NCBI GenBank assembly: GCA_963662315.1
Contig: OY759353.1
Span: forward strand, 768,001-832,000
DNA length: 64,000 nucleotides
Direction of reading: 5' to 3'
Source of the DNA: Geopsychrobacteraceae bacterium
GTDB taxonomy: Bacteria; Desulfobacterota; Desulfuromonadia; Desulfuromonadales; Geopsychrobacteraceae
Made by a program: the position numbers and the translations under genes. Shown here in pieces: positions 435-32,743 of this stretch (positions within the stretch are counted from its first letter, which is position 1; each line of letters starts with the position of its first letter). Below the pieces are notes generated by a model. The model worked only from the letters and a program-made list of their open reading frames with translations, was not told where the DNA came from and searched no databases.

Positions 435-1397
435 ATGAGAGCTGTTCAAGTTGAACAATTTGGTGAACCTCAAGTACTTAAAACTGTAGAAATGCCAAGT
501 CCTTATACATTAGAGCATCAGGTAAAGGTTGAAGTTAAGGCTGTTGGGGTTAATCCTGTTGATACATATATCAGAGCCGGTATTTATCCGCTAAAGCCTG
601 ATCTTCCATATGTCCCAGGAAATGATGCCGCTGGCATTATCTCTGAAGTTGGTTCTGGAGTACTACATCACAAAGTCGGGGATCACGTGTATGTCTTTGG
701 ACAGAATATTGGTGCCTATGCAGAGGAACTTGTCTGCAACCAAGCTCATGTTTATAGGCTGCCAGAGAATGTTTCATTTGTCACTGGTGCTGCCGTTGGC
801 GTTCCTTACACTACAGCGTTTTATGGGCTCATTTACCGCGCACAAGCGAAACCAGGAGAAACAATTCTTATTCATGGTGCTAGTGGCGCTGTTGGCTTGG
901 CTGCTATCCAGATCGCCAAGTCATACGGAATGCGCGTTATCGGCACCGCTGGTACTGAACAAGGTATAAGTTTACTCAAAGAACAAGGAGTCATTGCTGC
1001 TCTGAATCACCATGAGAATAATTATCTGGATGCGCTGGGTGAGCTGACATGTGATTGTGGCCCAGATGTTATTCTTGAAATGCTTGCTAATGTTAACCTG
1101 AATAACGATCTGAAGGTAATTGCCCGGCACGGTCGCATTGTTGTTATTGGGAATCGGGGCACGATTGAAATAAATCCTCGTGATACGATGGGGAAAAATG
1201 CATCTATCCTAGGGATGGCTGCTTTTAATGCTTCCAGGGCTGAGTTGTTTCAGATCCATTCGGCAATTTATTCTGGTCTTACAGATGGTCGTTTTAAACC
1301 GGTTATTCGTGTGGAATTACCATTGACCCGAGCAGCAGACGCTCACAAGCTTGTTATGGAACCCGGTGGAAACGGAAAGATTATTCTTGTCCCTTGA
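435..1397 (+). CDS. qor: NADPH:quinone oxidoreductase (zeta-crystallin/MDR family)
   Basis: 'GVNPVD', 'LPYVPGNDAAG', nucleotide-binding 'HGASGAVG', C-terminal 'GKIIL'; RBS GGAGG upstream. Confidence 0.88.
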   Translation: MRAVQVEQFGEPQVLKTVEMPSPYTLEHQVKVEVKAVGVNPVDTYIRAGIYPLKPDLPYVPGNDAAGIISEVGSGVLHHKVGDHVYVFGQNIGAYAEELVCNQAHVYRLPENVSFVTGAAVGVPYTTAFYGLIYRAQAKPGETILIHGASGAVGLAAIQIAKSYGMRVIGTAGTEQGISLLKEQGVIAALNHHENNYLDALGELTCDCGPDVILEMLANVNLNNDLKVIARHGRIVVIGNRGTIEINPRDTMGKNASILGMAAFNASRAELFQIHSAIYSGLTDGRFKPVIRVELPLTRAADAHKLVMEPGGNGKIILVP

Positions 1398-1484
1398 CCT
1401 TTTTAAGGGATATCTATCTAGGGGGTATATGAGATCGTCCGTTAGAAGGACCATTTGGAAACCTCAAATCTGGACGGTAATATT

Positions 1485-1512
1485 AGTTTACATAATATAT
1501 ATTATGCGACGT
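1485..1512 (-). promoter_or_regulatory. dif: dif-like XerCD recombination site (probable chromosomal dif / left junction of element)
   Basis: Minus strand reads ACGTCGCATAA-TATATA-TTATGTAAACT (11-6-11). The right arm and spacer match the B. subtilis dif as I recall it; the left arm has the GCATAA XerC core. Flanking core genes converge on this point. Confidence 0.85.
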
Positions 1513-1945
1513 TAAATATACGTCAATCCTTGGTGGGGTCTCTCGATGACCTCGCCACTCTCCAACCACCAACTTAACCCTAAAGTTACCCCTCTCGCTG
1601 ATGATCTGGTTGAAGTCTCCCTGACACTTCCGGATGATCTCGTTCATGACTTCCTCTTAGTCTTAGACTCACTGACCAATCTCGCCACCATTGTTCGAGC
1701 CAAGACCCGTTTAGCCAGGTACAAAGATAAAGCCGACGATATCCTTCAGGCCGAACGCTTCAAAGAGCGTGATGCTTTCTATGCTCGTGTCGTTAACCTG
1801 TACGACTGTCACATGGCTCGTGGCCTTAAACGTGATGCTGCTATCAAGCTGATCTCTAAGGAGCTACGCAAAGAAAAACATCCTTGGGCCTCGATCGAGT
1901 TGGTCAGGTCTTCTCTTGTTGCTGGTGGCCGGCCTCGTCAACGGA
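1496..1945 (+). repeat. ~450-bp direct repeat, copy A (partner 4034-4486)
   Basis: Direct comparison by eye: about 16 substitutions plus a 3-nt insertion in copy B. Confidence 0.95.
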
Positions 1946-1956
1946 GGAACTCATGA
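1546..1956 (+). CDS. Hypothetical 136-aa element protein (orf1), basic, with a possible helix-turn-helix-like C-terminus
   Basis: Retained in both copies with mostly synonymous differences; stop codon overlaps the rep start (ATGA). Confidence 0.8.
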   Translation: MTSPLSNHQLNPKVTPLADDLVEVSLTLPDDLVHDFLLVLDSLTNLATIVRAKTRLARYKDKADDILQAERFKERDAFYARVVNLYDCHMARGLKRDAAIKLISKELRKEKHPWASIELVRSSLVAGGRPRQRRNS

Positions 1957-2969
1957 ACTCCTCCGCTCCGATCCTTGCGGGGGCGTCCTGTAACACGCCC
2001 CCGCTAAATACAGAACCAACCCTTGATATTGCTACTATTCCTGAACAAAATCGAATAGTTATAGATTGGCTTGAAGTGACACTTCCTGACGAGTTTCGAT
2101 TGCAAAATAAATATCATTCCTTGAAGCATTATATCCGTATCTCTGGGGCTAAATTCAGTACTGCTCCCCGTGGCATGAATGGTTATTTGACCCGCATCAT
2201 TTACGGCAAAGCAGAGATTCTCATGGATGGCTCCGAAGGTATGGGCGTACACGTTATTCTTTCCGGTCAAGCCCTCCGGCAAATGGAGAATAGCCCTCTG
2301 GATTTTCTGCATTGGTGCCTCCACCATGATGGGAAGGTTTCCCGGATCGACCTTGCGTTGGATGATGTATCAGGCGAATTGACCCTCAATCGCGTTAAGC
2401 GTGCTGTTCGTGCTGGTGCTGCTTCCTGCAAGGCTAAACAGTATCGTCACATGGAAAGCGGTAAAGTCTCGACCGGTGAAGTCACTGGGGAAACTTTTTA
2501 TTTTGGATCAGCAAAGAGCGATACTCAGTATCGTATTTATGATAAGGCTGCAGAGCAAGGTCTAGATGGGCATTGGGTCCGCTGTGAAGGTCAATATCGG
2601 CATGAAAACGCTCATCGTGTCGCCCAGTTGGTCCATGCTGCAAAATTCGATATCGGCCCTATTTTCTGCGGTCTTCTCCGAGGCTATCTCAACTTCTTAA
2701 AGCCTTCGAAGACTGATAGCAATAAAAGCCGCTGGAAGGTCGCTTCTTGGTGGCTCGATCTTCTGCAAAGTGCTGAAAAGATAAAACTTTCCGTTCCAAA
2801 ACAGAAACCTACGATGGAACAGAAACTTAAATCGTTCACTAAACAAATGGCTCCAACTCTGGCAATGCTCGCAAGCTATTATCCTTCTCAAGTGATGAAA
2901 GATATGATGATGAATGGTAGATCCAGGTTAACTCAGGAGCAGCTAGAAATGTGTACGATTCCATTCTAA
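1953..2969 (+). CDS. Rolling-circle replication initiator, Rep_trans (PF02486-type; RstA/NicK/pT181 RepC-like)
   Basis: Motifs 'IDWLEVT', 'SRIDLALDD', 'GETFYFGS', 'RIYDKAAEQ', 'WVRCEGQYR'. ATG at 1953 with GGAGG at 1943-1947 is preferred over the TTG at 1884. Confidence 0.9.
   Translation: MNSSAPILAGASCNTPPLNTEPTLDIATIPEQNRIVIDWLEVTLPDEFRLQNKYHSLKHYIRISGAKFSTAPRGMNGYLTRIIYGKAEILMDGSEGMGVHVILSGQALRQMENSPLDFLHWCLHHDGKVSRIDLALDDVSGELTLNRVKRAVRAGAASCKAKQYRHMESGKVSTGEVTGETFYFGSAKSDTQYRIYDKAAEQGLDGHWVRCEGQYRHENAHRVAQLVHAAKFDIGPIFCGLLRGYLNFLKPSKTDSNKSRWKVASWWLDLLQSAEKIKLSVPKQKPTMEQKLKSFTKQMAPTLAMLASYYPSQVMKDMMMNGRSRLTQEQLEMCTIPF
1977..2004 (+). promoter_or_regulatory. Candidate nick-site hairpin (dso/oriT-like) inside the 5' end of rep
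   Basis: Perfect 10-bp stem GCGGGGGCGT/ACGCCCCCGC with loop CCTGTAAC. Confidence 0.55.
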
Positions 2970-3082
2970 CAATTTGCCGTTTATAGGGGAACGGCACTCG
3001 CGCAAGGGTTTCTTAACACTGCACTCCCCTACTCTTTCTCATACTGTCAGTTCTTGTAGTTCCAGCTGCTAGAACGATGCAT

Positions 3083-3112
3083 ACCGGTAGACTCTCTACT
3101 ACCGGTTTTTTT
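3083..3112 (+). terminator. Intrinsic terminator-like hairpin downstream of rep
   Basis: ACCGGTAG-actctcta-CTACCGGT followed by a T-run. Confidence 0.6.
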
Positions 3113-3127
3113 ATGGTGCGGAACAAT

Positions 3128-3404
3128 GCCGGTTGCGGTTGCGGGTTAACCCCGCACCGCACCGGCTTTAACCGCACCGCTCACCAATCCCGCTAGTTAT
3201 TTGCTGCTCCGCTACGCCATGCAAAACCATTTGTTTCTCTAAGAGAGACAGGCGCGCAACAGTTTGTAGCTACCTTCGTTTAGGTCAGGCGGCCCGCAAG
3301 GCCGAGCGACTGGGGACCCGCACGGGGTTACGTCCCCGTGTGGGGATTGGAAGCGATCCTGAACGACGGTAATAAGCCCCGATCTGTAACACTGGGGCGC
3401 TTAT
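3128..3404 (+). other. Hairpin-dense intergenic region (candidate single- and double-strand origin region)
   Basis: Stem-loops at 3128-3166, 3321-3340 (CACGGGG-ttacgt-CCCCGTG) and 3372-3404 (GCCCC-gatCTGTAACACt-GGGGC). Confidence 0.55.
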
Positions 3405-3418
3405 CTCAATTTTTTACT

Positions 3419-3452
3419 TTGACAATGGTGCTAGAAAAGTAGTACTACTTTT
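3419..3452 (+). promoter_or_regulatory. Sigma70-like promoter with an 18-bp palindromic operator upstream of the RHH gene
   Basis: TTGACA at 3419-3424; perfect palindrome AAAAGTAGTACTACTTTT at 3435-3452 covering the -10 position. Confidence 0.65.
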
Positions 3453-3476
3453 ATATTCCAACATGGAGGAAATATT

Positions 3477-3740
3477 ATGGCTCATGCTGACAGGAAGCAA
3501 TTTTCTATTTATTTAACTGATGAGCAAAACGAAAAGATTACTAAGTATGCTAAAAAGCTTGATATCTCAAAGCAAAGAATGATGTCAAATCTCCTTGATA
3601 TCGGTCTGGAAGATGTAGCAGTTCTTGATAAGATGGGCGTTTTGTTTTTAGGCGCAAGGGTTCGTGATCTAGTTCATAAGATCAAAAATGTTGACCCTGA
3701 TAAATTGGAGTCTTATTACGACGAATCGGAAGAGAGTTGA
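3477..3740 (+). CDS. Ribbon-helix-helix (CopG-like) DNA-binding protein
   Basis: 'RKQFSIYLTDEQNEKITKYAKKLDISKQRMMSNLL' has the beta-strand plus two-helix RHH pattern; RBS GGAGG at 3465-3469. Confidence 0.75.
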   Translation: MAHADRKQFSIYLTDEQNEKITKYAKKLDISKQRMMSNLLDIGLEDVAVLDKMGVLFLGARVRDLVHKIKNVDPDKLESYYDESEES

Positions 3741-3782
3741 CGTGTAGGTCAGTTTAATACTAGGATCTCAACCAATAAATGG

Positions 3783-3947
3783 TACAAGGACAGGTAACGC
3801 CAATTACCATATCTTGTATATGACAATTTGAACAGGAAAGCCCCTCAGAGCGCCAACTCCGAGAGGCTTAAACAAGGTGAAGCAGCAGAGCGCCAACTCT
3901 TTAGCTTCGTCGAATACCACCATCCTTCGGGGGATCAGGGGATTCTT
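3783..3947 (-). ncRNA. Candidate counter-transcribed antisense RNA with three UUGGCG-capped stem-loops
   Basis: Hairpin loops CGCCAA (+ strand) at 3798-3803, 3851-3856 and 3891-3896; minus-strand promoter directly upstream. Confidence 0.55.
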
Positions 3948-3952
3948 TTGTG

Positions 3953-3981
3953 ATCATATTTGTAATATGGGGATGTGTCAA
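3953..3981 (-). promoter_or_regulatory. Near-consensus sigma70 promoter firing leftwards
   Basis: Minus strand TTGACA (3981-3976), 17-nt spacer, TATGAT (3958-3953). Confidence 0.7.
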
Positions 3982-4022
3982 CCTCTCTCCTTCTTTGACG
4001 AATTATCAAAGAAAAACGAGAC

Positions 4023-4050
4023 ATTCAAAAACCTATATATTATGCGACGT
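4023..4050 (-). promoter_or_regulatory. Hybrid dif site (right junction): intact XerC arm and spacer, degenerate XerD arm
   Basis: Minus strand ACGTCGCATAA-TATATA-GGTTTTTGAAT; 17 bp identical to the site at 1496-1512, other arm diverged. Confidence 0.8.
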
Positions 4051-4083
4051 TAAATATACGTCAATCCGTGGTGGGGTCTCTCG

Positions 4084-4494
4084 ATGACCTCGCCATTCTC
4101 CAACCACCAACTTAACCCTAAAGTCACCCCTCTTGCTGATGATCTGGTTGAAGTCTCCCTGACGCTGCCGGATGATCTCGTCCATGACTTCCTCTTAGTC
4201 TTAGACTCACTGACAAACCTAGCCACCATTGTCCGAGCCAAGACCCGTTTAGCCAGGTACAAAGATAAGGCCGACGATATCCTTCAGGCCGAACGCTTCA
4301 AAGAGCGTGATGCTTTTTTCTATGCTCGTGTCGTTAACCTGTACGACTGTCACATGGCTCGTGGCCTTAAACGTGATGCAGCTATTAAGCTGATCTCTCA
4401 GGAGCTACGCAAAGAGAAACATCCTTGGGCCTCGATCGAGTTGGTCAGGTCTTCTCTTGTTGCTGGTGGCCGGCCTCGTCAACGGAAGACTTAA
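4084..4494 (+). CDS. Hypothetical element protein orf1, second allele
   Basis: Near-identical to 1546-1956: L5F, one extra F, one K>Q, altered last residues. Confidence 0.8.
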   Translation: MTSPFSNHQLNPKVTPLADDLVEVSLTLPDDLVHDFLLVLDSLTNLATIVRAKTRLARYKDKADDILQAERFKERDAFFYARVVNLYDCHMARGLKRDAAIKLISQELRKEKHPWASIELVRSSLVAGGRPRQRKT

Positions 4495-4649
4495 AGCATT
4501 ACATAAAAGAATTGTTCACCAAGCAAGTCGCCCCGTCCATGGCCTTTCTCTTTAAATATTACGGCCCTGAAACTATGGCCGAAATCATGACAAACGGCAT
4601 GTCTCGTTTAACTCAGGAACAACGGGAACTCTGTTCGATTCCGTTTTAG
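4487..4649 (+). pseudogene. Rep_trans C-terminal remnant
   Basis: 'FTKQVAPSMAFLFKYYGPETMAEIMTNGMSRLTQEQRELCSIPF' aligns with the Rep end 'FTKQMAPTLAMLASYYPSQVMKDMMMNGRSRLTQEQLEMCTIPF'; catalytic region absent. Confidence 0.8.
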
Positions 4650-4654
4650 AAAGG

Positions 4655-4858
4655 TTAATGATTTTCTGCAACCCAAGATTTTTCTATGCGATCAAAAACA
4701 TAATTCTTAACAATATTGCTACCGATAGGACCACCGATGCCTTCAATGCGCAGATCTCCTCCGGCATATTTAGATGACACAGCTTTGGCTTGTTCAAGAC
4801 TATTTGTAGATTCAACTAGTTTGCCATTGACGTAAAGGTTGTAAATGTAATCGGACAT
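4655..4858 (-). CDS. Small hypothetical protein (67 aa), possible element cargo
   Basis: ATG at 4858 preceded by AGGAG; converges on the rep remnant. Confidence 0.55.
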   Translation of the reverse strand: MSDYIYNLYVNGKLVESTNSLEQAKAVSSKYAGGDLRIEGIGGPIGSNIVKNYVFDRIEKSWVAENH

Positions 4859-5070
4859 TTCAACTCCTTGAGGCTGATAGCTATTCACGATGCTGATACG
4901 CTTAATAATTTATCAGAACATTTAGACATGGCAATCCTTCTGTTTTTTTCTGGATGACTGCAAATAAGCTTTCTGAAAACATCTTAATGATTGGGCTTCC
5001 CGCTTTCCAAGCAAAAGCTCTAGCCTGGGATTACAGGCTAGAAAAAATGGATAAATACATGGTGACAATA

Positions 5071-5103
5071 AAAAAGCCGACTTGTTGTTCAAGTCGGCTT
5101 TTT
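5071..5103. terminator. Bidirectional intrinsic terminator downstream of tRNA-Pro
   Basis: AAAAAGCCGACTTG-ttgtt-CAAGTCGGCTTTTT. Confidence 0.85.
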
Positions 5104-5106
5104 ACA

Positions 5107-5183
5107 TGGTCGGGATGATAGGATTTGAACCTACGGCCCCTTGACCCCCAGTCAAGTGCGCTACCAGACTGCGCCACATCCCG
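5107..5183 (-). tRNA. tRNA-Pro(GGG)
   Basis: Minus strand CGGGATGTGGCGCAGTCTGGTAGCGCA...CTTGA-CTGGGGG-TCAAG...GGTTCAAATCC...CCCGACCA; upstream TTGACA-17-AATAAT with a GC-rich discriminator. Confidence 0.97.
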
Positions 5184-5252
5184 TTAAACTTAACAGCGCC
5201 GCGAATTATTAATTATTCAATGTCGCTTGTCAAGGACAATTACCGTGTTTTG

Positions 5253-6149
5253 TTATTGGTTGGAATGTTTTAAGTCCGCGATAATTCCTTCGAGTAATCC
5301 TGAGTCGGAAACCCGAATGTGTTCCTGATTGAATTTATTGGCTAATGCTAGCAATATTTGCATGCCTGGAATAATAAGGTCTCCCCTGCCCGCTTCCATT
5401 CCTAGGAGTTGTTCCCTCTCTGTGATAGAAAGAGGCTGCATATAAGAGTGTATTTCGCTTAGCCAGCCGGTTGATATGGCGGAATTATTAATAAGGTCTA
5501 CATCGTACTCAGTAAGTCCAAGTTGCATGGCAGAGAGCGTTGTCACTGTACCTGCCGTACCGATTAATTCGTAGCGCATATGACCTAGTCCTGCGTTGGT
5601 AAGCCGCTCGACGAAGTCGTTCATTGTCATTTCAATAAAATTTATACAAGCTTCTGCACTGTCATACTCCTCACAAAGTCTAACCACTCCTAAAGGATAA
5701 CTATGTTGAAGTTTTGTCTGCTTATTTTGGATACAGATCAATTCCGTGCTTCCGCCGCCAATATCAATGATAATAGCCGTTTGCGGCATGGGATCCATTA
5801 CGGACAAGACGCCGCTGGTGGTCAGCATTGCTTCGGTGTCACCGGAAATAACGTCGAGTCTGATTCCTGTCTGGTCATGTACTGAGTCAAGGAACTGTTG
5901 GCTATTTTTTGCCCTTCTGACCGCTTCGGTTGCCACCGCACGATAACAAGTAACCTTGGCCTCAGCCATTATTTGGCTGAAGTCTTTCAACGCCGCCAGG
6001 GTTCTGTCCATACTGGCATGATTAAGGCAGCCATTGGAAAATTGCCCAGAAAGACGCGTTACCTGGCGATGATAGAGCTGGGTTCTGTGTTGTTCGTCTG
6101 CGATTAGAAGTCTGACAGTATTGCTACCGACATCAATAGCTCCTAACAT
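5253..6149 (-). CDS. ppx: Ppx/GppA family exopolyphosphatase
   Basis: 'AIDVGSNTVRL', 'ATEAVRRAKN', 'DIGGGSTE', 'GLLEG'. Confidence 0.9.
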   Translation of the reverse strand: MLGAIDVGSNTVRLLIADEQHRTQLYHRQVTRLSGQFSNGCLNHASMDRTLAALKDFSQIMAEAKVTCYRAVATEAVRRAKNSQQFLDSVHDQTGIRLDVISGDTEAMLTTSGVLSVMDPMPQTAIIIDIGGGSTELICIQNKQTKLQHSYPLGVVRLCEEYDSAEACINFIEMTMNDFVERLTNAGLGHMRYELIGTAGTVTTLSAMQLGLTEYDVDLINNSAISTGWLSEIHSYMQPLSITEREQLLGMEAGRGDLIIPGMQILLALANKFNQEHIRVSDSGLLEGIIADLKHSNQ

Positions 6150-31849: not shown

Positions 31850-32743
31850 TTAACCCCTCGGGTGAAATTGTGTGTGAATCTTTTTCAGACGCTCTTGCAG
31901 AACATGGGTGTATATCTGAGTCGTTGAAATATCTGCATGCCCCAGCATACTTTGAACCGAACGCAAATCTGCACCATTCTCAAGCAGGTGGGTCGCGAAA
32001 GAATGACGCAGAATGTGCGGGTAGACCGGTTTACTGATGCTGGCTTTTAATGCGTAAGCGCGTAAATTTTTCCAGAATCCCTGACGACTCATATTGAGTC
32101 CGTGGCGATTCAGAAATACGAAATCGATCTTGTTGTCTTTTTTTAGAATTAATCTACCCTCGTGCAGATAATCAAGTAAAAATTCGAGAGCGACCTCCCC
32201 CAAAGGAATAAGACGCTGTTTTGCCCCCTTCCCTAGCGTTGTAATACACCCAACATCGGCTTTGATGTCACTTAACTTCAGATTGACCAATTCCGATACC
32301 CGCATGCCGGTTGCGTACAGGACTTCAAGCATGGCCCGGTCTCTTTGAACCGCAGGACCTGAACCTTGTGGTGCGGTCAGTAAAGATTCAACTTCACTCT
32401 GAGATAACAGCTTTGGCAGGGGTTGATAAATCTTAGGGGTTTCGATTAGAGCCGAAGGGTCCACAATGAGAAGGTTTTCCTTAACCAGAAATCGATGAAA
32501 GCCTCTTATGGAACTTAACACGCGTGCCCGACTGCGCGGAGAAATTGCCTTCTTTTTCTGCAAGAAGGTCAAATATTCAATAACGTGCGTCTGCTGGATC
32601 TCTGCTGCCCCTGAAAGATGACATTGTCCCTCCAGATAGTCGGCGTAATTTGTCAGGTCGCGACCATACGCACTCAGGGTGTTTGGGGAAAGCCCTTTTT
32701 CCACCGTCAGAAAATTTAAAAAACGATCGATAAGATCATTCAT
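31850..32743 (-). CDS. xerD: Site-specific tyrosine recombinase XerD
   Basis: 'LYATGMRVSEL', 'HILRHSFATHLLENGADLRSVQSMLGHADISTTQIYTHV', 'HPRG' end. Confidence 0.93.
   Translation of the reverse strand: MNDLIDRFLNFLTVEKGLSPNTLSAYGRDLTNYADYLEGQCHLSGAAEIQQTHVIEYLTFLQKKKAISPRSRARVLSSIRGFHRFLVKENLLIVDPSALIETPKIYQPLPKLLSQSEVESLLTAPQGSGPAVQRDRAMLEVLYATGMRVSELVNLKLSDIKADVGCITTLGKGAKQRLIPLGEVALEFLLDYLHEGRLILKKDNKIDFVFLNRHGLNMSRQGFWKNLRAYALKASISKPVYPHILRHSFATHLLENGADLRSVQSMLGHADISTTQIYTHVLQERLKKIHTQFHPRG

Follow-up and report, generated by a model that had tools for sequence, protein, structure and literature searches.

A 2538-bp element occupies, spacer to spacer, positions 1496-4033 (plus strand) of the 64,000-nucleotide stretch of Geopsychrobacteraceae DNA analysed here (the window), where it lies integrated at dif, is bordered by a 17-bp direct repeat, and carries three genes: orf1, one for a Rep_trans initiator and one for a protein with a weak likeness to RHH. 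From the arrangement of the DNA, we consider it highly probable that this is an IMEX of the TLC/GGI type with the life cycle proposed below. The IMEX reading, put forward in a first-pass annotation of the window, is backed by comparison: the identity of the dif site, a 17-mer shared by both borders, empty alleles in relatives, the recurrence of related elements whose sites match those of their hosts, xerC and xerD genes in the host, and no integrase of the element's own. The refuting conditions set out in that annotation were each examined, and none told against it.

The sequence at 1485-1512, AGTTTACATAA-TATATA-TTATGCGACGT, is the real dif of the chromosome, a complete 11-6-11 site (no strand assigned) consisting of a XerD-side arm (1485-1495), a spacer (1496-1501) and a XerC-side arm (1502-1512). 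It had been described as a full dif-like site, and its position at the terminus, its uniqueness in the genome and its conservation in relatives agree on this. Cumulative GC skew has its maximum at genome position 771,000 (1-kb bins), 1.5 kb from the site at 769,485; the site has no other match in the genome at up to 6 substitutions, and no better dif was found elsewhere in the 4,709,195-bp genome. Exact copies of the 17-mer formed by the spacer and right arm stand at 1496 and 4034 and nowhere else (4,709,195 bp, both strands), the next best genome matches having 3 mismatches, and identical or nearly identical dif sites lie beside recG/qor in relatives. The naming of the arms as XerC and XerD is putative and follows the consensus together with the motif given for Vibrio dif in PMC12715192.

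The right border of the element is a hybrid site at 4023-4050 (no strand assigned), ATTCAAAAACC-TATATA-TTATGCGACGT, which presumably represents the attP sequence. Its spacer and XerC-side arm are identical to those of dif (6/6 and 11/11) and its XerD-side arm is scrambled (4/11, with 7/11 mismatches), just as first reported. The two halves of a direct repeat (1496-1948 and 4034-4489) share 96-97% identity, their period being 2538-2541. A search of 1300-5300 found no pair of inverted dif-like sites. Pfam, PHROG and NCBIfam scans of every ORF in 1513-5070 detected no integrase, capsid, Zot or conjugation domain, in keeping with the absence of such genes noted at first pass, and Zot (PF05707) had no match anywhere in the genome.

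Both host recombinases are encoded in the genome. The xerD gene is at 31850-32743, where it had been placed, and is read from the minus strand (TIGR02225; 377.3 bits, above the cut-off of 329.6), and xerC is at 1317545-1318417 of contig C1 of the host genome (G000; 343 bits against a cut-off of 335). We infer that the element has a circular form, depends on Xer, replicates by rolling circle and gives orf1 a role, as follows. A 2.5-kb circular double-stranded form would carry one attachment site identical to 4023-4050, composed of the non-consensus XerD-side arm, the host 6-bp spacer and the host XerC-side arm. The host XerC/XerD would bring this site together with dif and swap strands inside the spacer. 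The left junction would then join the chromosomal XerD arm to the XerC arm of the element as a fully functional dif, while the right junction would be a crippled hybrid site, hardly usable by Xer/FtsK, so that the element would stay integrated. The next arrival would enter the regenerated dif, which would leave the newest copy beside qor and the older, decayed copy towards tRNA-Pro. Extrachromosomal replication would proceed by rolling circle via the Rep_trans protein, with a structured non-coding region as the likely origin of lagging-strand synthesis. Situated beside the good arm and translationally coupled to rep, orf1 would most likely act as a helper or controller of Xer recombination, which is the least certain step of the cycle.

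Every letter of the left junction agrees with the dif of relatives, which makes repeated arrival at dif plausible; regeneration of dif at this junction, as originally suggested, is consistent with the exact match and with the tandem copies in relative G004. Contigs of 4 public runs contain the integrated structure alone, and neither a circular junction nor a free form was detected; a circle junction would be nearly indistinguishable from the junction of copy 1 and copy 2, from which only a few SNPs would set it apart.

Elements of the same architecture, 2.2-2.7 kb in length, are present in six relatives (G004, G009, G014, G107, G084 and G147). In the window, the rolling-circle initiator (338 aa; 1953-2969, plus strand) matches Rep_trans (PF02486) with an E value of 7e-45 and Rol_Rep_N with 1.5e-7. 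It aligns with PDB 4cij_A over 250 residues (E 6.8e-37), including the RIYDK/RFYEK stretch with the conserved Tyr, and is ~31% identical to the Reps of small Firmicutes plasmids. Assignment to the MobT relaxases of integrative conjugative elements was rejected (NF041493, 68 bits against a cut-off of 600). The last of the three genes encodes an 87-aa protein (3477-3740, plus strand) that resembles RHH regulators weakly (RHH_3 E 0.08, below threshold) and matches phrog_4085, of unknown function, at 2.3e-5; its model has a pLDDT of 57 and a strand-less beta-alpha-alpha-like pattern, and homologues are found in the elements of G003 (83%), G107 (51%) and G014 (29%). Of the three-gene content initially described, the Rep_trans part stands and the RHH part is a weak call.

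Downstream of rep, a terminator scan identified a GC-rich hairpin of 8 bp with a T run after it (3083-3106, plus strand), which is a terminator or, by analogy with pT181-type origins, possibly a nick-site hairpin. The single-stranded DNA fold of 2970-3476 has a z of -6.7, and the conserved structured non-coding element at 3283-3364 (plus strand) is a candidate single-strand origin on the evidence of conserved pairing and recurrence in relatives. Of its 29 predicted pairs, 8 show compensatory changes (5 sequences); it is 84-86% identical in G004 and G014, is also present in the G003 element, which carries the other Rep family, and has no match in Rfam. The non-coding right end (3741-4022, no strand assigned) is likewise conserved, with nhmmer matches in the elements of the six relatives named above and of G003. 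It contains a 14-nt direct repeat (3846-3859 and 3886-3899) and a strong minus-strand promoter-like site from 3981 to 3953 (TTGACA-17-TATGAT, 11/12 match); no plus-strand promoter for orf1-rep was found near the dif site.

The terminal gene, orf1 (136 aa; 1546-1956, plus strand), begins 33 bp from the XerC-side arm, and its stop codon overlaps the start of rep (ATGA). Pfam, PHROG and NCBIfam give no match to orf1, nor do 72,556 plasmid records; a library of 1.8 billion proteins contains 73 representatives of its family, which is present in 44 of the 233 genomes of the order. The model (pLDDT 91.7) has a beta-hairpin, a helix of 60 residues and, at the C-terminus, a small helical domain; the C-terminal 65 residues bear a weak likeness to DNA-binding domains of the HTH or winged-helix kind (best Z 6.7). 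The homologues were examined for the adjacency to dif that the first-pass annotation had raised: a dif or hybrid site lies upstream within 150 bp in 45 of 62 family matches and within 1 kb in 53 of 62 (46 loci), counts that overstate independence because the relatives are kin. Family genes always lie 9-49 bp from the site's good arm, and their partners are two unrelated Rep families or, in mini-elements of 1-1.6 kb, an RHH gene alone. DUF3653 (PF12375), a known Xer activator domain, was found in none of the element proteins and in 0 of the 233 genomes of the order. The adjacency to dif, the variety of Rep partners and the absence of DUF3653 argue that orf1 is a candidate new Xer co-factor.

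It is quite possible, if short of probable, that orf1 is not a recombination helper and acts instead as a regulator of replication or copy number coupled to rep, or serves to keep the element at dif through maintenance or addiction, for instance as a toxin working with the RHH protein. A regulator would fit the overlap with the start of rep and the HTH or winged-helix likeness of the C-terminal domain, but the Rep partners of orf1 come from two unrelated families, and some elements with orf1 have no Rep. An addiction function would fit the mini-elements, in which CopG/RHH stands directly before a long orf1 in the usual antitoxin-toxin order, as well as the persistence of intact orf1 in decayed copies; in the window, however, no RHH gene adjoins orf1. 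Both proposals leave the constant 9-49-bp abutment on the good arm unexplained. A broader reading, to which we tentatively give nearly but not quite even weight, is that the orf1 family constitutes a previously unrecognised Xer-hijacking factor, a functional counterpart of XafT without sequence or fold kinship, that defines a dif-resident superfamily across Desulfuromonadia. Such a superfamily would take in 2.2-2.7-kb replicons whose initiators are of the Rep_trans or the HUH type (REP_ORF2-G2P), mini-elements of 1-1.6 kb in which an attachment site is accompanied by nothing more than an RHH gene and a long orf1, and mirror-image forms that copy the XerD-side arm in place of the XerC-side arm and would collect on the opposite side of dif. 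One small protein beside a 17-bp half-dif would then suffice for DNA integration at the terminus.

To the right of the hybrid site lies an older copy, whose identity to copy 1 ends at 4489. It had been taken for a second related copy, and related it is, as orf1' (136 aa; 4084-4494, plus strand) is intact and 96% identical to orf1 in amino acids; it is not a full copy but a remnant, with Rep cut to a diverged stretch of its last ~44 codons (4515-4649, plus strand; tblastn 59% identity to Rep residues 295-338). The two orf1 genes differ by 14 synonymous and 4 nonsynonymous codon differences and one inserted codon, a mostly synonymous pattern that would fit two separate arrivals. No right-hand hybrid site of the older copy was found. 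A 77-aa ORF (4655-4888, minus strand), which belongs to no family and has no homologue in the loci of relatives, either came as cargo of the old copy or is no gene at all. The copy of the element in G002 is also decayed.

The attachment sites of relatives follow those of their hosts. G004 has dif and 4 hybrid sites with a period of 2437 bp, forming four tandem copies with 0 mismatches between them. Hybrid sites with the host's own spacer and XerC-arm variant are found in the other five genomes with elements of the same architecture and in G119, G193, G195, G083, G075 and G325; the host spacer variants mirrored in this way are TATACA, TATCTA, TATTTC, TATATC, TATAGA and TATGTA. The degenerate arm has no conserved inner bases across elements, and the attachment sites of relatives include both arm types. 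Smaller relatives of 1-1.6 kb consist of an RHH gene and a long orf1, so that the earlier claim of a minimal type needs a qualifier: the element is small and has three genes, and these relatives are smaller still.

An inovirus prophage (Zot, coat B, Rep_trans) is situated between dif and an orf1-family member in G014. The presence of a Rep_trans gene at dif in this prophage, together with the frequency of decay (copy 2 of the window and the G002 copy), might suggest that the unit is the stump of an inovirus prophage once integrated at dif and not a self-standing minimal class. We regard this as very unlikely, since at least 7 genomes repeat the three-part architecture at 2.2-2.7 kb, its ORFs intact and its borders running exactly from site to site, the four copies in G004 are identical, the G014 prophage has no orf1 and a Rep that is 24% identical, and the window's genome has no Zot gene. 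Classification of the element itself as an Inoviridae prophage was rejected, as it has neither a Zot/pI assembly ATPase nor a major coat protein.

The integrated array is flanked by chromosomal genes. On the left is a qor-like zinc-type dehydrogenase gene (435-1397, plus strand; ADH_zinc_N 1.3e-22, ADH_N 1.2e-15), which is syntenic with recG in relatives, and on the right are tRNA-Pro(GGG) and a terminator hairpin (5071-5183, minus strand; ARAGORN, Rfam, inverted repeat I3). The first-pass annotation had pointed to relatives as a place to seek an empty dif, and unoccupied alleles are present in G010, G012, G007 and G011. In G010, recG, dif and tRNA-Pro lie inside ~600 bp; in G012 and G007, chromosomal terminator sequence directly follows dif; and tRNA-Pro adjoins dif directly in the empty alleles. 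That a tyrosine integrase acted in trans, or that the element is an island targeted to tRNA-Pro with a coincidental dif neighbourhood, is scarcely credible: although tRNA-Pro is 1 kb to the right and another Rep_trans element, at 3.74 Mb, has two integrases and an HTH_17 protein, the Rep of that element is 33% identical, the border repeats are dif halves and not tRNA ends, dif and tRNA-Pro are already neighbours in empty alleles, and the orf1 family is still at dif where dif is away from tRNA-Pro.

Read as an IMEX, the element is about half the size of the TLC-phi satellite of Vibrio cholerae, whose replicase is a Cri-type protein as opposed to the Rep_trans protein found here. Both retain a XerC-like arm and spacer beside a divergent XerD arm (with our putative naming of the arms), and both are small, have no capsid genes, are stacked at dif with other IMEXs and have a terminal gene by attP. 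They differ in that no DUF3653/XafT domain is present in orf1 or in the 233 genomes of the order, in that the degenerate arm has no conserved inner bases here, and in phylum. In the TLC literature, the XerC arm and central region of attP resemble dif and its XerD arm diverges (PMC5357621), the first and the fifth of the inner base pairs are important (PMC9226527), and the terminal gene xafT next to attP helps Xer (PMC6744903, PMC12715192); a degenerate XerD arm guards against FtsK-driven excision (PMC5357621 on GGI; PMC9226527). The GGI similarly lies between dif and a site that resembles it and has a degenerate XerD arm, which, according to PMC6744903 and PMC5357621, blocks FtsK-driven excision, and the authors there proposed that some unknown factor from another superfamily activates Xer. 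The GGI itself is an island of 57 kb for type IV secretion, whereas this element is 2.5 kb and has a rolling-circle Rep.

RS1, at ~2.5-2.7 kb, is similar in size to this element. RS1 and CTX-phi, with RstA, resemble it in having a Rep_trans-family initiator, small regulators and tandem arrays at dif, and one relative, G014, also houses an inovirus, as in the CTX/RS1/TLC arrays. CTX-type integration, as outlined in PMC5357621, involves a folded single strand with two inverted sites, whereas this element has one double-strand-type site and no inverted dif-like pair. The plasmids of the pT181 family (Rep of PDB 4CIJ) share a Rep_trans protein with a Tyr-containing R-x-Y-x-K stretch and a size of 2-3 kb (plasmid H1, 3169 bp), but differ in their ~31% Rep identity, their Firmicutes hosts and the lack of orf1 among the 72,556 plasmid records. 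We know of no dif-like site on plasmids of this family.

Vibrio dif-type double-jelly-roll (DJR) and CTX-I prophages, as described in PMC12715192, have attachment sites that mimic either a full dif or 17 bp of it, the spacer with a single arm ('left-armed' or 'right-armed'); they also have fixed pairs of terminal genes by attP, and mixed tandem arrays. They are full phages with xafT/p15, whereas the elements described here are plasmid-sized or smaller and have an unrelated terminal gene. Both arm types occur among the relatives, and a DJR-capsid prophage is present at dif in G016.

The candidate element is bounded by two dif-like sites. The first, at 1485-1512 (AGTTTACATAA-TATATA-TTATGCGACGT), has the full 11-6-11 layout described in the first-pass annotation, with palindromic inner bases, and its position and conservation bear out the assignment. 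Cumulative G-C skew of the single-contig genome (1-kb bins) reaches its maximum at 771,000 and its minimum at ~3.05 Mb, and the site, at 769,485 in genome coordinates, lies ~1.5 kb from that maximum. Allowing up to 6 substitutions, the full 28-mer matches nowhere else in the genome, and no better dif was found elsewhere. Beside recG/qor in relatives from the same genus, family and order, the 28-mer recurs identically or with 1-3 changes. Empty sites, which had been proposed as a check, were found among these related genomes (G numbers): recG, the dif site and tRNA-Pro all lie inside ~600 bp in G010, and chromosomal terminator sequence directly follows the dif site in G012 and G007.

The second site, at 4023-4050 (ATTCAAAAACC-TATATA-TTATGCGACGT), shares with the first an exact 17-mer comprising the spacer and right arm, as expected from the earlier description of an identical spacer and XerC arm joined to a scrambled XerD arm. 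This 17-mer occurs exactly twice in the 4,709,195-bp genome, the next best match having 3 mismatches. The two neighborhoods are alike from the first spacer base on, over ~455 bp at 96-97% identity and with a period of 2538-2541. Both host recombinases are encoded: xerD, at 31850-32743 on the minus strand, where it had been annotated, scores 377 bits (cut-off 329.6), and xerC, located at 1.32 Mb in the genome, scores 343 bits (cut-off 335). We provisionally label 1485-1495 the XerD-side arm because it is near-invariant across the order and agrees with its counterpart in the Vibrio dif motif of PMC12715192. The naming of the arms otherwise follows the usual convention, and a reversal would alter labels only. 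In one relative that lacks orf1, the terminal gene adjoining the attachment site (locus L018, G001), the first ~14 bases to the right of dif resemble the element start and may be the scar of a lost copy. At another locus (L055, G223), the gene for a XerC/XerD-like recombinase that shares 40% identity with XerD ends ~30 bp to the left of dif, with an orf1 element on the opposite side.

Three genes had been assigned to the 2538-bp unit between the sites (copy 1). orf1 (1546-1956, 136 aa) has a stop codon that overlaps the start codon of rep (1953-2969), whose product matches Rep_trans (E 7e-45) and Rol_Rep_N (1.5e-7). The Rep protein aligns with the plasmid initiator 4cij in the PDB over 250 residues (E 6.8e-37), including the tyrosine-containing R-I-Y-D-K stretch, and shares ~31% identity with Reps from Firmicutes plasmids of 3 kb. 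Assignment as a MobT relaxase was rejected (68 bits against a model cut-off of 600). The third gene (3477-3740, 87 aa) is a less certain case, as its ribbon-helix-helix (RHH) character is weakly supported: RHH_3 was matched at E 0.08, the other match was phrog_4085, of unknown function, and the structural model (pLDDT 57) was too poor for structure searches. No integrase, capsid, Zot or transfer gene was found between the two sites, in agreement with the original reading, and Zot had no match across the entire genome.

The non-coding parts of copy 1 hold several features. A hairpin followed by a T run lies at 3083-3106, and a 500-nt non-coding stretch has an unusually strong predicted single-stranded DNA fold (z = -6.7). 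Within this stretch, an 80-nt element at 3283-3364 is 84-86% conserved in G004 and G014, and 8 of its 29 predicted pairs show compensatory changes among five sequences. It recurs in elements whose Rep families differ, and may be either a single-strand origin or a small RNA; an Rfam search of 1300-5300 returned tRNA-Pro alone above threshold, and nothing for this element. In a public sequencing run (X4), a 2135-nt contig with a depth of 348 (flanks ~98) matches the window at 3091-3331 only and then continues into unlike sequence; it may represent another replicon in that sample that shares the non-coding module. The conserved right end (3741-4022) carries a strong promoter-like site on the minus strand (3953-3981, near-consensus TTGACA-17-TATGAT), the -35 box of which is kept in G004, G009 and G014. 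This site is antisense to the RHH-like gene and directed away from the attachment site. Near the attachment site, no plus-strand promoter for orf1 scored above the scan threshold.

The related second copy reported to follow the hybrid site was found as a remnant. Its orf1' (4084-4494) is intact, while the diverged rep is reduced to its last ~44 codons (59% identity); the tRNA-Pro terminator lies beyond it, after an intervening 77-aa ORF of unknown origin. To the right of this copy no third hybrid site was detected at up to 3 mismatches, nor by alignment with G002. orf1 and orf1' differ by 14 synonymous and 4 nonsynonymous codon changes and one inserted codon, a pattern expected of two related elements that arrived separately as opposed to in-place duplication and drift. 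The intact copy adjoins the complete dif and the decayed copy lies farther away, as expected if newcomers enter a regenerated dif.

We also determined how widely orf1 occurs and whether its relatives are found at dif. orf1 belongs to no Pfam, PHROG or NCBIfam family, and a Pfam scan of 62 aligned family members revealed no shared family. A search of 1.84 billion representative proteins returned 73 at E <= 0.001. Within the order, profile matches were obtained in 44 of 233 genomes (38 of the 147 of high quality), spanning 24 of 71 genera; in a sample of the phylum, the 6 positive genomes among 401 all belong to the same class. No match was found by tblastn among 72,556 plasmid records or 50,697 phage records, and a scan of viral contigs yielded no relative. 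The association with dif was scored at 46 loci, comprising 37 regions (the best match per further genome) and nine prior loci including the window. A dif or hybrid site lies within 150 bp upstream of the orf1 5' end in 45 of the 62 matches at these loci, and within 1 kb in 53. Four of the nine misses lie at sequence ends or gaps (two G205 matches at a contig start and an N run; G167a and G167b at contig ends), and the others are two G014 fragments, G006b (none within the 8.7 kb fetched), G005 (site 2 kb away) and G147b (1.5 kb away).

Although hybrid sites were searched for by arm sequence only, the spacers they carry (TATACA, TATCTA, TATTTC, TATATC, TATAGA or TATGTA) are those of their respective hosts, and so are their arm variants, as with TTATGGGACGT in G325, a member of another order. 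In G004, dif is followed by four hybrid sites at a spacing of 2437 bp, and the four units are identical. Taken together, the dif anatomy, the empty sites and the recurrence with host-matched spacers and arms make it very probable, from sequence comparison, that the element is an integrative mobile element exploiting host XerC/XerD (IMEX), as first proposed. This kind of element is already known; the host group, the plasmid-sized architecture and the orf1 marker family are new in the literature searched. No paper in that literature connected IMEXs with Geobacter, deltaproteobacteria or Desulfobacterota in this way. To our knowledge, IMEXs have been worked out almost solely in Vibrio, Neisseria, Xanthomonas and enterobacteria. 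The same Xer strategy would now extend to Desulfuromonadales, a group used for bioelectrochemistry and subsurface metal cycling, with a different and unannotated terminal gene, and orf1 together with a half-dif offers a marker for annotating dif and its cargo there.

The genes that accompany orf1 vary. It is followed by Rep_trans in G000 (the source genome), G004, G014 and G107, and by an unrelated REP_ORF2-G2P initiator in G009, G147, G084, G003, G075 and G221. A long form of orf1, which forms one clade (100/100 support), occurs in units of 0.95-1.6 kb with dif at one border and a hybrid site at the other, holding besides orf1 only a small RHH/CopG-type gene (G193, G195, G083, G119, G075, G178 and G325). 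The element lies on the opposite side of dif in G003, G178, G075, G221 and G016. There its outer border retains the spacer and XerD-side arm, the XerC-side arm being degenerate, and here too orf1 adjoins the good arm and is oriented away from it. The side changes at least 4 times on the tree, which ruled out the possibility that the copied arm is set by the orf1 subfamily. One-armed attachment sites of both kinds are known from Vibrio prophages, according to PMC12715192, so the opposite-side form is not new in itself.

orf1 keeps a fixed position next to the attachment site, is not tied to one replication module and is present in mini-elements that lack Rep, and DUF3653, the domain of the only known element-encoded Xer activator (XafT), was found in 0 of 233 genomes of the order. 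Together these observations suggest that orf1 serves the integration/excision step or its control, a part like that played in TLC-phi by XafT, which is reported from gamma- and beta-proteobacteria (PMC6744903). The authors of that paper raise the possibility that islands whose arms are degenerate encode Xer activators from a different superfamily. Alternatively, orf1 may have a regulatory or addiction function. Its confident model (pLDDT 91.7) shows a beta-hairpin and a 60-residue helix, together with a C-terminal domain that is small and helical and ends in a basic tail; Foldseek found nothing in the PDB at E <= 0.001, and the ESM Atlas returned unnamed clusters only. A wider structure search (VIA) placed residues 67-136 on assorted winged-helix/HTH domains, with a best Z of 6.7 (rmsd 3.0, 64 aligned) that is below the level deemed meaningful. 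A predicted complex of XerD (30-row alignment) and orf1 (62 rows), run without controls, scored 0.00 and counts neither for nor against an interaction. Elements of 1-2.5 kb are small enough to be rebuilt as test plasmids, making FtsK-independent recombination of attachment sites with a ruined arm directly testable.

Other residents of dif were also observed. In G014, a 6.5-kb inovirus (L017, 3335-9870) encoding Zot, DUF2523, coat protein B and Rep_trans separates dif from a 2.5-kb orf1-Rep element; a hybrid site there has the TATACA spacer of the host, and the arrangement is like that of phage-plus-satellite arrays. In G016, a 10.4-kb prophage (L023, 1391-11769) encoding a double-jelly-roll capsid (P2_N/P2_C) as well as an SLT lysozyme occupies the XerD side of dif, and its border site keeps only the XerD-side arm and spacer. 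The two ends of a metagenomic contig of 1944 bp (L113) overlap exactly over 55 nt, a signature of circular or tandem DNA. Its Rep shares 61% identity with that of the window, and it carries neither orf1 nor a dif-like site. These features hint that the Rep module can exist as a free rolling-circle replicon of 1.9 kb. Movement of the element between cells could involve inovirus packaging, mobilization or uptake by transformation. Outside the window, a second Rep_trans gene in the source genome (L032, G000:C1:3733000-3752000; 33% identical) is accompanied by two tyrosine integrases, an HTH_17 excisionase-like gene and CI/CII-like regulators; this relative is integrase-bearing, whereas the dif element is integrase-less.

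Contigs of four public runs (X1-X4) from one study, possibly of the source sample, reproduced the integrated arrangement; neither a free circle nor a variant marking the circle junction, which is distinguishable from the copy 1/copy 2 junction by SNPs only, was seen in these contigs, from which rare forms are dropped. A joint from 1525 to 5100 in X1-X3 (depth 111, 104 and 313) has only 30 letters on one side with the intervening letters unknown, and is unusable as evidence; an empty allele might account for it, or a different organism with dif and tRNA-Pro in common. Several contigs from X1-X4 match through dif and then diverge at window position 1519-1520 into differing sequences, which could come from other organisms with the same dif or from other dif cargo in the community.
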